Source of the DNA: Candidatus Jorgensenbacteria bacterium RIFCSPLOWO2_12_FULL_42_11
GTDB taxonomy: Bacteria > Patescibacteriota > Minisyncoccia > UBA6257 > MFKM01
NCBI GenBank assembly: GCA_001779575.1
Contig: MFKM01000030.1
Coordinates: 1 to 30,924, forward strand
DNA: 30,924 nucleotides
Direction of reading: 5' to 3'
The notes beneath the pieces were generated by a model. The model was given only the letters and a program-made list of their open reading frames with translations, did no database searches and was not told the origin of the DNA. The translations under genes and the position numbers were made by a program. This document shows positions 4,264 to 9,655 of this stretch, one piece after another; position 1 is the first letter of the stretch; every line of letters begins with the position of its first letter.

Positions 4264-4923
4264 ATGAATCAAGGTCATAAAATAAAAGAGAATTTAATAA
4301 GTCGAGTTTCTACTACTGGGCAGGCCTTAGTTGAAATTCTTATCGGATTGGCCGTGGCCGGAACTTTAATAGGCGCGGCGACTACGGCGTTGGTGGCGAT
4401 TTTGCGCTCCGGCTTGGAAACTAAAAATTTTCAAATCGCTTCTTCTTTGGGCCAAGAATTGATGGATAATGTCAAAACGGTGGCCGAAGCCGATTGGCGC
4501 GACATTTACGATTTGAGCAAAGGACAGAACACTCAATATTACGCAATGGCTTCGGGGACAGCGTCTATTATTTTTTCCGGCGTCGCCACATCTACCGTCG
4601 GCAACATTACTTATACCAAATTTTTTTCCGTAGAGAATGTTAAACGCTTAAGTGGAATTATCAGCGTTGATTTCTTGGCCGTTGATGATCCTTCCACCCA
4701 GAAAATTGTCAGCCACGTCCAGTGGCCCAGCGCCGGCCGGACTGCCGAAGCGGTTTTGACGGTTTATTTGAGCCGCTGGCGCAATTCTATTTCCCGCCAG
4801 ACCGATTGGTCGGGAGGAAGCGGTCAAACGGGGCCGGTTTCCGAATTAAATAAAAAATTTGCCTCCTCCACGGGCATTGATTATTCTTCAAGCACGGGTT
4901 CAATTATTATTCAGGGATTTTAA
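4264..4923 (+). CDS. Minor pilin-like protein
   Basis: 219 aa; TG|QALVEILIGLAVAGTLIGAA class III signal motif with Glu at +5. Confidence 0.82.
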   Translation: MNQGHKIKENLISRVSTTGQALVEILIGLAVAGTLIGAATTALVAILRSGLETKNFQIASSLGQELMDNVKTVAEADWRDIYDLSKGQNTQYYAMASGTASIIFSGVATSTVGNITYTKFFSVENVKRLSGIISVDFLAVDDPSTQKIVSHVQWPSAGRTAEAVLTVYLSRWRNSISRQTDWSGGSGQTGPVSELNKKFASSTGIDYSSSTGSIIIQGF

Positions 4924-5114: not shown

Positions 5115-5142
5115 TTGACTTCTCAAAACTTAGGATTACAAT
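5115..5142 (+). promoter_or_regulatory. Sigma70-type promoter for grpE-dnaK (near-leaderless)
   Basis: TTGACT (5115-5120), 16-bp spacer, TACAAT (5137-5142); ATG 8 nt downstream. Confidence 0.6.
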
Positions 5143-5150
5143 TTCTTATT

Positions 5151-5672
5151 ATGACCGAAGAAGCGAAAATTCAAGAATCAGAAGAAGAAAAACCGGCGGA
5201 GCTTGACGATTTGTCAAAATGCCAGAAAGAACGGGACGAATATCTTGACGGTTGGCGGCGGGCCAAGGCCGAACTTCTGAATTATAAAAAAGAAGAAAAT
5301 AAAAGATTTGAAATTTTCGCGAAGCTGGCCAACGAAGGATTGATAAGAAATCTTTTGACGGTTTTGAGCAGTTTTGATTTGGGGCTAATGTCTTTGTCTC
5401 CCTACGGGAGATCCCCCGAAGGGGGAGAAAAAGAAGGATTAGACCAGAAAGGGATGTATTTGATTCGCTCTCAACTTAAAGATATTCTTAAATCGCACGG
5501 CTTGGAAGAAATCGCGGTTTCAACGGGAGAGGTTTTTAATCCGGCTACGCAAGAAGCGGTGGCTGAAATCGCGTCGGATCAACCGGCGGGAACTATTATT
5601 GAAGAAGTGGAAAAAGGTTATTTATTAAATGGCCGGACAATCAAGCCGGCGAGGGTAAAAATAGCAAAATAA
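5151..5672 (+). CDS. grpE: Nucleotide exchange factor GrpE
   Basis: YLDGWRRAKAELLNYKK, FNPATQEAV, EEVEKGYLLNGRTIKPARVKI; directly upstream of dnaK. ATG 5151 is chosen over TTG 5115, which is the -35 box. Confidence 0.93.
   Translation: MTEEAKIQESEEEKPAELDDLSKCQKERDEYLDGWRRAKAELLNYKKEENKRFEIFAKLANEGLIRNLLTVLSSFDLGLMSLSPYGRSPEGGEKEGLDQKGMYLIRSQLKDILKSHGLEEIAVSTGEVFNPATQEAVAEIASDQPAGTIIEEVEKGYLLNGRTIKPARVKIAK
5397..5426. repeat. In-frame double-hairpin (30 bp) inside grpE
   Basis: TCTCCC-TAC-GGGAGA followed by TCCCCC-GAA-GGGGGA; exactly 10 codons (SPYGRSPEGG). Confidence 0.8.
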
Positions 5673-5702: not shown

Positions 5703-7511
5703 ATGTCTAAAATACTTGGCATTGATTTAGGAACAACTTATTCGGCGATGGCGATTGTTGAAGGAGGAGAGCCGAAAATTATTGAAAACACCGAAGGCAA
5801 CCGGACGACTCCTTCCGTGGTCGCTTCAAGCAAAAACGGAGAAAGATTGGCGGGTTTATTGGCCAAGCGCCAATCAATCACCAATCCCAAAAATACCATT
5901 TTTTCGGTCAAACGTTTAATCGGCCGAAGATTCAGCGATAAGACGGTTCAGTATGACAAGACCTGGCTGTCTTACGAAATCAAAGAAGGAGCTAACGACG
6001 GAGTGGAAATAAAATTAGGCGACCGGTGGTATAAACCCGAGGAAATTTCGGCCATGATTCTTCAAAAACTCAAAGCGGACGCCGAAACTAAATTGGGAGA
6101 AAAAATAGAAGAAGCGGTCATCACCGTTCCGGCTTATTTTGACGATAGCCAGCGCCAGGCCACTAAAAATGCCGGAGAAATTGCCGGTTTCAAAGTGCGA
6201 TTGATTCTGAACGAACCCACGGCCGCGGCTTTGGCTTACGGACTAAACAAGAAAAAAAACGAGCAGATTATCGTTTATGATTTCGGCGGCGGCACTTTTG
6301 ATATTTCCATTTTGGAAGTAAGCGAAGACGTCGTTGAAGTTAAGGGAACCGGCGGCGATACTCATCTGGGAGGCGATGACTTTGACAAGAGAATTATTGA
6401 TTATTTGGTTTCAGATTACAAAAAACAAGAAGGAGTTGATATTTCCAAAGATCCTCTGGCTTTGCAACGTTTGAAGGAAGCGGCCGAGCGAGCCAAGCAC
6501 GAGCTTTCCACGGCTTCCGAAACCGAAATCAATCTGCCTTATGTCACGACCGATGCTTCCGGCCCCAAGCATTTCTTGAAGAAATTAACCCGAGCCAAAC
6601 TGGAAGAATTGGTCGGGGATTTGATTGAGCGTTCCATTAAATTAGTGGACGAAACCCTGAAAGAAGCGGGTTTTAAATCTTCGGATATTGAACAAATTGT
6701 TTTAGTCGGCGGACAAACGAGAATGCCGGCTATTCAGGAAGCGGTTAAAAAGTTCTTCGGAAAAGAACCGCACAAGGAAGTTAACCCCGATGAAGTGGTG
6801 GCGGCCGGAGCGGCGATTCAGGCCGGAATTCTTCAAGGCGAGGTGAGAGATGTTTTGCTTTTGGATGTCAGCCCTTTGAGTTTGAGTTTGGAAACTTTGG
6901 GCGGTATTGCCACGCCGATGATTCCTAAAAATACGACTATTCCGACTGCTAAAACCCAGACTTTTTCAACGGCGGCGGATAATCAGACGACGGTGGAAAT
7001 CGTGGTGCTTCAAGGAGAACGGGAAATGGCCGTCGACAACAAACTTTTGGGCCGTTTTCTGCTTGACGGAATCGCGCCGGCGGCTCGGGGCGTTCCCCAG
7101 GTTGAAGTTACTTTTGACATTGACGCTAACGGCATTTTAAGCGTCTCGGCCAAAGACAAAGCCACCGGCAAAAGCCAGACCATTAAAATTGAAGCGACCA
7201 CTTCCTTGAGTAAAGAAGAAGTGGAACGATTAAAACAGGAAGCCGCTCTTCACGCCGAAGAAGACAAAAAAAAGAAAGAATTGGTAGAAATGAAAAATCA
7301 AGCCGAATCCTCGGTTTATCTGGCGGAGAAAACTCTTAAAGAAAATAGCGATAAAATCGCCCAGGATTTGAAAGATTCCCTGACAGGGAAAATAGAAAAG
7401 TTAAAATCGGTTAAGGAGGGCGACAGCGCCGAAGAAATAAAATCGGCGATTAGCGAACTTTCCCAAGCTGTTCAAGATATCGGCAAAGGAACGCAAGGCA
7501 AGCAGAATTAA
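5703..7511 (+). CDS. dnaK: Chaperone DnaK (Hsp70)
   Basis: 602 aa; [50 protein letters not shown], linker DVLLLDV. Confidence 0.98.
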
Positions 7512-7535
7512 ATTTAATTTAAAGTAAAGCGAATT

Positions 7536-8525
7536 ATGGCTGATTTACTTTCTAAGGAAAAAGAAGACAATCTTTATCAGCCGCTTGTTAAAGTTATTCC
7601 TCTGCTGTCCTTTGAGATCGGGTCCGTTTTTTTGATGAGTTTTTGTTTCCGGCAATTCATAGGCAAGGCCGATTTATCAGCCGGCGGATTGTTTTGGTTT
7701 TTGATTGGTTTTGGTTTGTTCGCGGTTTTTTCTTTTTTAGCCGCTCTTTTTGTCAATGGATTACAGTGGTCGGGTTTAGCGGCCGGTTTGTCCGTGGTTG
7801 CCGCTCTGGCGGTTTTTTACGATTATTTTTCAACAATTTTAGTCGTTTTCGGGATTCTCGCTTTCTTGATTTTTATATGGGGGATAAGCCAGCTGCGTTT
7901 GGAATCGGCCAATTCTTTGAAAATCAGATTTCTCCGTTTGACGAAAATATTTTTGCCCAAGATTGCCTTGGGGACAGCGATCTTGCTTTCTCTTTTTAGC
8001 TATTTTCTGTTTTCTAGCCAAAGCGACTTTCCGGTTTCTTTTAAAAATTTCCAGTTTTTGTTAAAACCGAACGAAAAACTGGTTGGTGTTTTTATTCCGG
8101 ATTTTAGTTTCCAAAAACCATTTCAGACAGCTTTAGCCGGCTTTCTTAAAAAGCAATTAATCGCGAAAGTTCCCAGTTTTGAAAGCTTGTCGGCTTCGGT
8201 CAAAGAAACAATGGCGGAATCGGCTGCCGAAAAGGGATTAACCGACTTGAATAAATTTTTGGGCGTTGAAATTAACGCCCGGGATTCAGCTGATAAGGTT
8301 ATTTACGATTCTTTGGCGATAAAATTCAACCAGCTTGATGAAAGAGCCAAAAAATGGATAATTACGGGGGTGTTCGTTGTTTTGTTTTTAACTATCAGGG
8401 CTTTATTTGTTCCTATAAATTGGTTGTTGTCCATTCTCTTGTTTTTGATTTATTTGTTTTTGTTAGCGCTTAATTTTGCCAGTGTTAAAATGGAATCAAG
8501 AGGCAAAGAAGTATTAACAATATGA
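7536..8525 (+). CDS. Hypothetical polytopic membrane protein
   Basis: 329 aa; about five hydrophobic segments in the N-terminal half, a soluble region and a long C-terminal hydrophobic stretch; its stop overlaps the dnaJ start (ATGA). Confidence 0.75.
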
Positions 8526-9655
8526 AGAAAGATTATTACAAAATTTTAGGGGTTGATCGCGGCGCTTCGGCCGAAGAAATCAAAAAGATTTTTTATAAAT
8601 TAGCCCATCAATGCCATCCCCATAAAGCCGGCAAGGACGAAAAAAAATTCAAGGAATTAAACGAAAAATTCAAGGAAATCAACGAGGCTTACCAGGTTCT
8701 TTCCGACAAAGAAAAAAGAGCGCAATACGATCGTTTCGGCCAGGTTTTTGAGGGAGCGCCGGTTGGCGGCAGCGGAGGCGGAGGGCCTTTCGGGTTCGGC
8801 CAGGGCTTTGACGCGTCAGCCGGCGGGTTCGGTTTTGAGGAAGGAGCGGGCGACTTTGGCGATTTGGGGGATTTTTTTGAAAGTTTTTTTGAAGACATGG
8901 GTATTCGGCAACGTCGGCGAACTTATCGTCATGGTTCGGATATAGAAACAGCGCAAGAAATAAGCTTGGAAGAATCTTTTAGAGGAGTTCGGAAGCATTT
9001 ACAATATAGAACTTTGGTTGCTTGCGATAAATGCCAGGGGTTGGGTTATGACAAAAAAGACGGGAAAAGCGTTTGTTCAACTTGCGCCGGCCGCGGAGAA
9101 ATTAAAGAAAATCGTCAGACTTTTTTCGGCAATTTTTCCCAGAACAGGGCTTGTCCCCAATGTCGCGGTTTTGGCGAAGTTCCCAATAAAGTTTGTTCCG
9201 AATGCAAGGGCTCGGGTCAGCGGCCGGGCTTGAGAGAGGTGGATATTGATATCGCGCCGGGAGTGGCCGACGGCCAAATCATAAAAGTAAAAGGAATGGG
9301 CGAGGCGGGCGAGCAAGGCAGCGAGGCCGGCGACCTTTATATCCGAATCAAAGAAAAACCGCATCCGCTTTTTCGTCGGGAGGGAGACGACCTGTTTTTT
9401 AACCAGGAATTAAAATTAACCGAGGCTTTATTGGGCAAAAAAATCAGAATTAACGATTTAAGCGGAGAATTCTTGGACATTGAATTGCCGGCAGGGTTCA
9501 GCTTCAGAGAAAAATTGAAAATTCACGGCAAGGGAATGCCGCGTTTGCACGGAACGGGCCGGGGCAATCTCTATTTGGAACTTGATTTGAAATCGCCAAA
9601 AAAACTTTCCGAAAAAGCCAGAAAAATTGCCGAAGAATTGGACAAGGAAATATAG
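8522..9655 (+). CDS. dnaJ: Chaperone DnaJ (class A) with HPD changed to HPH
   Basis: J-domain (DYYKILGV...[24 protein letters not shown]), G/F-rich region, four CxxCxGxG repeats, C-terminal GDLY motifs; residues 32-34 read HPH. Confidence 0.95.

Follow-up and report, generated by a model that had tools for sequence, protein, structure and literature searches.

The dnaK and dnaJ genes of the 30,924-nt contig MFKM01000030.1 (Candidatus Jorgensenbacteria bacterium RIFCSPLOWO2_12_FULL_42_11; this whole stretch is called the window) were found to lack both residues of the central contact between a J-protein and its Hsp70. The aspartate of the DnaJ His-Pro-Asp (HPD) motif is replaced by histidine (HPH), and leucine stands at the site of Escherichia coli DnaK Arg167. 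The two replacements were shown to be coupled, recurrent and fixed, and the operon probably encodes a functional GrpE-DnaK-DnaJ system whose central polar J-trigger contact has been replaced by compensatory co-evolution. The genes and codons concerned are the following.

5703..7511, + strand: dnaK, 602 aa; PF00012, 814 bits, profile positions 1-595 of 599.
6201..6203, + strand: DnaK codon 167, TTG (Leu), at the site of E. coli DnaK Arg167.
8522..9655, + strand: dnaJ, 377 aa, class A architecture; PF00226, PF00684 and PF01556.
8615..8623, + strand: DnaJ codons 32-34, CAT CCC CAT (His32-Pro33-His34), at the site of E. coli H33-P34-D35.

In every Hsp70 system tested, the aspartate of HPD and Arg167 of DnaK are regarded as essential and almost invariant. 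E. coli Arg167 is taken here to be the 'gate' arginine that is touched by DnaJ Asp35. In the canonical cycle, ion pairs of Arg167 hold the ATP state shut, and Asp35 captures Arg167, frees the interface and triggers ATP hydrolysis.

Codon reading and alignment confirmed the HPH motif at 8615-8623 and the Leu codon (TTG) at 6201-6203, both of which had been reported by a sequence-only reading of the window. The window DnaK was aligned to E. coli DnaK structures (2KHO, 5NRO and 4B9Q) with phmmer (E 4e-208, spanning E. coli residues 1-598), and residues 1-183 align ungapped, placing Leu167 at E. coli Arg167. No alternative base was present at either site in Logan contigs from 4 further runs and at least 3 other studies, and nearby differences in these contigs were synonymous except for 8613 G>A (Cys31Tyr). 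Contigs of independent studies thus showed neither GAT nor an Arg codon, and agreement of independent assemblies at both codons upholds the earlier argument that a sequencing error hardly explains the pair. Cys31 (8612-8614, + strand) lies directly 5' of HPH; it is Tyr, His or Phe in relatives, and the codon is TAC (Tyr) in a related strain (run X10).

Three further candidates were rejected. Divergent helix II residues had also been tied to HPH, a link that did not hold, as Ile23 and Cys31 are private to the species and Phe24/Tyr25 occur in many HPD relatives. Arg166 was ruled out as a shifted stand-in for Arg167, since the KVRRI context is ancestral in the order and Arg166 was already present. 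Asn at the E. coli D481 site was rejected as a third matched change because Patescibacteria in general, and most other sampled phyla, normally carry Asn there.

The window DnaK has the full Hsp70 architecture of nucleotide-binding domain (NBD), VLLLD linker, substrate-binding domain beta (SBD-beta) and lid, stands in an operon with grpE and dnaJ, and is present in a single genome copy; at the NBD/linker/SBD-beta interface it carries Leu167 in place of Arg. The window DnaJ has a J-domain (PF00226, 85 bits against a cut-off of 27.8), a visible Gly/Phe stretch, four CxxCxGxG repeats and C-terminal domains (PF00684, 50 bits; PF01556, 130 bits), with HPH for HPD between helices II and III. The four-helix J-domain fold was kept in an AlphaFold2 (AF2) model (predicted local distance difference test, pLDDT, 86).

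The window belongs to a genome (G000) of 529 kb and 87% completeness, assigned to Patescibacteria (Paceibacterota-type metagenome-assembled genomes, MAGs). It contains one J-domain (a single PF00226 match) and one true, full-length Hsp70; the two other PF00012 matches are weak, with open frames of about 335 aa matching the profile only in part. Exactly one J-domain was found in each of the four other species of the genus (G001-G004) and in genome G458 of a second HPH lineage (clade 2, described below). The altered DnaK and DnaJ are the housekeeping pair and not accessory paralogues, because each genome checked holds one J-domain and G000 holds one Hsp70. This is also the outcome of a check proposed with the original reading, a look for other J-proteins or DnaK copies in the genome.

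HPH and Leu167 were present in all five species of the genus, at 78-83% (DnaJ) and 88-94% (DnaK) identity to the window proteins. In the other families sampled in the order, HPD was kept in 25 of 25 DnaJ and Arg167 in 25 of 25 DnaK, in the KVRRI context. Across Patescibacteria, 401 evenly sampled genomes were screened for a second base other than G at codon 167, a state that excludes Arg. The DnaK pattern around the codon was matched in 351 of them, and a non-G second base was found only in G000.

Protein-cluster searches were word-seeded and run over 5.8 billion proteins; all cluster counts are given among the matches listed. The J-domain search listed 120 clusters, of which 32 were HPH and 88 HPD. 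The HPH clusters comprised clade 1a (19 clusters, window included, HPHKAGKD), clade 1b (6 clusters, HPHKAGKD) and clade 2 (7 clusters, HPHKGGDE, one named Nealsonbacteria). A DnaK search from the window gave 33 Leu167 clusters, and one from a clade 2 query gave 58 clusters with Met, 7 with Leu, 2 with Ile, 2 with Lys and 51 with Arg; the clade 2 DnaK matches include the MAGs Nealsonbacteria RBG_13_37_56 and RIFCSPHIGHO2_01_FULL_38_55. Clade 2 is a second, larger, Nealsonbacteria-like lineage in which Met, Leu or Ile at 167 accompanies HPH or, in two cases, HPN.

Pairing of residue 167 with the HPx motif was tabulated for 98 genomes or contigs in which both genes were readable on one contig or genome.

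Arg167 with HPD: 81 cases.
Lys167 with HPD: 1 case (L253).
Asn167 with HPD: 1 case (L186).
Leu, Met or Ile167 with HPH: 12 cases.
Met167 with HPN: 2 cases (L265, L215).
Arg167 with an alignment gap at the motif: 1 case (L042).

Asp was absent in all 14 cases with a hydrophobic residue at 167, and all 83 readable motifs paired with Arg, Lys or Asn at 167 were HPD; neither a hydrophobic 167 with Asp35 nor HPH or HPN with Arg167 occurred among the 98. The closest HPD relatives of each HPH clade (L097, L098 and L099) carry Arg167. Among 44 species related to G458, 42 have Arg with HPD, one has Lys with HPD, and only G458 has Met with HPH. A useful control is provided by Lys167, a conservative variant of the 'invariant' arginine in which charge is retained and Asp is retained too: it occurs with HPD in L253 (G492:C16:2300-7200; KVRKVINEP), a relative of a Nealsonbacteria genome, and two further Lys167 clusters (P0288 and P0290) were found. 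The proposal that the D35 and R167 contact residues had changed as a matched pair was strongly supported, the two changes co-occurring in every member of two independent lineages.

Origins were assessed on trees, the DnaK tree being inferred by a careful search on an alignment from which the columns around residue 167 had been cut. On it, clade 2 was sister to two Arg167/HPD contigs (support 100/99) and lay outside the clade of the window's order (96/94). Forcing all non-Arg DnaKs into one clade was 94 log-likelihood units worse (approximately unbiased test, p-AU 1e-5), and forcing one HPH clade on the DnaJ tree was 278 units worse (p-AU 2e-4). Clades 1a and 1b stood apart on both trees. The trees point to two origins of the paired change, a third being possible; two are counted because a single origin was rejected, the union of 1a and 1b was not (AU p=0.076), and a 21-nt tandem duplication is common to both. 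The codons fit single-base steps throughout, GAY to CAY in dnaJ and, in dnaK, CGN to CTN (clade 1) or AGR to ATG or ATA (clade 2).

Among the DnaK positions that do not vary in 32 other Patescibacteria, residue 167 alone is altered in every HPH clade, and position 34 is the only invariant J-domain position altered in all HPH clades. H32, P33 and H34 are invariant in 31 aligned HPH clusters, with Asn at 34 in two further loci, and K21 and the F50/K51/E52 region of the J-domain are conserved. The window DnaK holds the full J-responsive network (P143, D148, R151, K155, N170, T173, E217, V218, Q378, L390-D393, K414, N415, P419 and D477). Across the HPH clades, P143, D148, R151, K155, N170, T173, V218, L391, L392, D393, N415, P419, D477 and D479 were unchanged in every DnaK examined, and Q378, E217, L390 and K414 varied in single sequences only. 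Purifying selection on both genes was strong, with ratios of non-synonymous to synonymous substitution rates (dN/dS) within HPH lineages of 0.05-0.10 for dnaK, 0.08-0.12 for dnaJ and 0.02-0.07 for the J-domain. This pattern indicates a contact that is probably maintained and working rather than decaying, because dN/dS is low, H32, P33 and H34 are invariant and the signalling residues are kept.

The complex 5NRO shows D35 hydrogen-bonded to R167 and Q378, H33 bonded to the backbone of L391 and P34 packed against P419 (PMC8215388). R167 ion-pairs with D393 of the linker and D481 of SBD-beta, and the J-domain Asp competes for R167; where R167 or its partners were altered in E. coli DnaK or yeast Ssq1, basal ATPase rose and J-stimulation became ineffective (PMC7289447). 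[quoted passage not shown] By analogy, the natural genotypes appear to reproduce this compensated state, in which arginine gate and aspartate key are both lost.

With the Arg gate gone (Leu167; Met, Leu or Ile in clade 2), Asp35 would be left without a partner and facing the acidic Asp393, a repulsion that His or Asn in its place would avoid. The J-domain would still dock at the canonical site, on the surface formed by linker and SBD-beta, and the HPH J-domain would be expected still to stimulate hydrolysis. His34 could pack against the aliphatic side chain at 167 and perhaps form a direct hydrogen bond with Gln378 or Asp393, which are Gln373 and Asp388 in the numbering of the window DnaK. Single changes would be deleterious alone, as in E. 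coli, and the pair may have crossed this fitness valley by two single-base changes. A more specific proposal is offered tentatively, as a possibility that falls somewhat short of even: that the His or Asn engages Asp393 and/or Gln378 and packs on the aliphatic 167 as a distinct J-trigger, orthogonal to the HPD/Arg167 mode and evolved at least twice.

Several points weigh against a compensated, working contact. The surveys were word-seeded or confined to the matches listed, and not exhaustive. Retained J-stimulation is deduced from sequence constraint only. Two origins are few evolutionary replicates, and clades 1a and 1b may represent one origin or two. Locus L186 combines Asn167 (LDVLNIINEP) with HPD, a loss of Arg167 without loss of Asp35, in a canonical lepA...hrcA-grpE-dnaK-dnaJ operon (L186:773-2569, - strand; L186:3-692, - strand). 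It is a single metagenome contig and, among the orthologous DnaKs compared, the only case outside the HPH clades in which strict Arg/Asp conservation breaks down; on this contig, a polar replacement at 167 can apparently coexist with Asp. The co-occurrence across Patescibacteria that the sequence-only reading had looked for therefore stands for the hydrophobic form, in which the changes were never found apart, and fails for L186. Lastly, a co-fold of DnaK residues 1-505, ATP and the J-domain reached an interface score (ipSAE) of 0.57 against 0.02 for the best control, with at least 92% of contacts shared between runs and a partner pLDDT of at least 79. The mark applied was met by 58 of 80 solved complexes and by 2 of 110 mismatched pairs, and passes at or below 0.60 comprised 7 of those 80 and both passing mismatches. 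The pass is weak, speaks weakly in favour of the pair and may mirror likeness to the solved 5NRO; the co-fold was set aside as support for a His34-Leu167 contact, the pass being weak and its output giving no contacts.

The main rival explanation is a loss of J-triggering, in which Leu167 unclamps DnaK, basal ATPase is high, DnaJ acts as a holdase that hands over substrate and the Asp is free to change. The raised basal ATPase and ineffective J-stimulation of R167 and partner mutants (PMC7289447) speak for it, as do the very small genomes and reduced proteomes of these organisms. With a dispensable trigger, constraint on the whole HPD loop and on the basic surface of helix II should, however, be relaxed; instead, H32, P33, K21 and the F50/K51/E52 region are conserved, His34 is found in 31 of 31 aligned HPH clusters over two origins with a J-domain dN/dS of 0.02-0.07, and the J-signal residues in the linker, the SBD-beta loop and the NBD are retained. 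With the HP[H/N] loop strict and the signalling residues conserved, this explanation is disfavoured and is considered unlikely.

Under the scenario suggested by the sequence-only reading, the pair was rewired for orthogonality to, and insulation from, host chaperones. Patescibacteria are often episymbionts, and the pair may function badly with canonical partners if it behaves like the allele-specific E. coli suppressor; biochemical orthogonality to HPD/Arg167 partners is plausible on that analogy. The insulation itself is very improbable. There is nothing in the cell to be orthogonal to, because each genome checked has a single J-protein and G000 a single Hsp70; host chaperones sit in a different cytoplasm, in another cell; and HPD and Arg167 persist in dozens of sister lineages whose genomes are similarly small.

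Two unlinked neutral substitutions that happen to share lineages, or an error of assembly or sequencing, are scarcely credible. A single base accounts for each change, and mildly deleterious changes become fixed in small populations, but the same pairing arose at least twice, residue 167 changed in 0 of about 350 other sampled genomes of the phylum, HPD was kept in 88 of 88 non-HPH clusters among the matches listed, and independent assemblies from several studies agree, with the states shared by five species and tens of protein clusters.

Compensatory replacement of the contact was also compared with known systems. The E. coli laboratory pair of D35N with R167H or R167A is alike in that the same two positions are changed, the J-domain Asp and the DnaK Arg both being lost, and its feature is that it works only when both are changed; the natural loci L265 and L215 carry Asn at position 35, like D35N. 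The natural pairs differ in being fixed and recurrent, in affecting housekeeping genes of which no second copy was found in the genome, in having mostly His at 35 and an aliphatic residue (Leu, Met or Ile) rather than His or Ala at 167, and, in clade 1, in a heptad duplication. The canonical GrpE-DnaK-DnaJ system (5NRO) is matched in operon, domain architectures and other catalytic and allosteric residues, including the VLLLD linker, P419, D477 and the basic face of helix II, whereas the D35-R167 polar contact, held to be universal and essential, is gone on both sides.

The HPE J-proteins DjlB and DjlC, which act with HscC, likewise combine a natural variant of the third motif residue with a dedicated Hsp70. 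There, however, the Asp-to-Glu change is conservative, charge is kept and the proteins are specialised paralogues beside canonical DnaK and DnaJ; here the sole housekeeping pair is altered and the charge is lost. Pam16/Tim16, DNAJB13 and private Hsp70 modules with degenerate J-like domains also have a third motif residue other than Asp. They are accessory, often non-stimulating and widely degenerate in the motif, in contrast to the present DnaJ, in which His-Pro is intact and the class A protein is full, with no canonical J-protein found alongside.

The literature searched contained no account of a class A DnaJ with a natural HPH or HPN motif, nor of a housekeeping DnaK that has lost Arg167 in nature. 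The largest J-protein census dropped all sequences without HPD and those from unclassified organisms (PMC10410713). Censuses that discard non-HPD J-domains miss variants which, as judged here from conservation, are apparently functional. The trigger mechanism is reportedly still debated, and in a 2026 simulation paper the computed allosteric pathways are said to bypass the D35-R167 contact. Sole-copy housekeeping pairs without both residues, in two lineages and beside relatives that keep them, form matched natural pairs; with them one can ask directly whether the system depends on the salt bridge as such, or whether it is enough that no arginine gate is left unpaired. They also present the classic laboratory suppressor genotype as an evolutionarily reachable solution, and may supply naturally orthogonal Hsp70/J-protein pairs for engineering.

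Clade 1 DnaJ is further marked by a duplication at the start of J-domain helix III.

8645..8665, + strand: tandem duplication in dnaJ, 21 nt, KFKELNE, directly 5' of KFKEINE at 8666-8686.

The duplicated stretch (window 8645-8686, + strand) reads aaattcaaggaattaaacgaa then aaattcaaggaaatcaacgag and doubles a KFKExNE heptad; it is present in all clade 1 HPH DnaJs and absent in clade 2. Owing to it, helix III (residues 40-61 in the AF2 model, pLDDT 86) is about two turns longer than in relatives. Helix III bears the equivalents of E. coli F47 and K48, which touch the DnaK linker and D477, and duplication of the heptad would give two candidate copies of this contact. The insert was rejected as a feature linked to HPH: clade 2 is without it, and the HPD DnaJs P0030 and P0111 have an unrelated 7-residue insert at the site. 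It is therefore a mark of clade 1 and not a requirement.

Two further genes belong to the operon.

5115..5672, + strand: grpE, nucleotide exchange factor, opens the operon; Pfam PF01025 (GrpE), E 5e-32.
7536..8525, + strand: membrane open reading frame (ORF), 329 aa, polytopic, between dnaK and dnaJ; without a Pfam match.

The stop of the 329-aa ORF shares 4 nt with the dnaJ start (ATGA), and ORFs of 303-340 aa occupy the same slot in HPH loci L092 and L094 and in HPD locus L099 of the order. It is an operon member that is uncoupled from HPH, and in the order its product may serve as a membrane partner that is expressed together with the chaperone operon. The gene downstream of dnaJ in the operon region is rmuC. 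Upstream, an ORF at window 4264-4923 (+ strand) encodes a product whose N-terminal hydrophobic segment is characteristic of type IV pilin-like/pseudopilin proteins, and related locus L094 has type II secretion system E and F genes upstream of grpE.

Metagenomes were also scanned for a non-Arg codon 167, giving loci L100-L219, which are the matches listed and not a census. They were rejected as evidence on housekeeping DnaK, being mostly distant Hsp70 paralogues (25-45% identity) without an adjacent class A DnaJ. Paralogue families among these listed loci carry Asp, Gln, Lys, Ala, Ser, Asn, Glu, His or Tyr at the Arg167 site, and AGLNVLDIINEPTAA is a recurrent type. L185 is the only listed locus with a DnaJ-like J-domain beside such a paralogue, and HPD is kept there. 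L157, L191 and L205 are about 50% identical, read VR[A/Q/N]ILNEP and may be orthologous DnaKs of another lineage.

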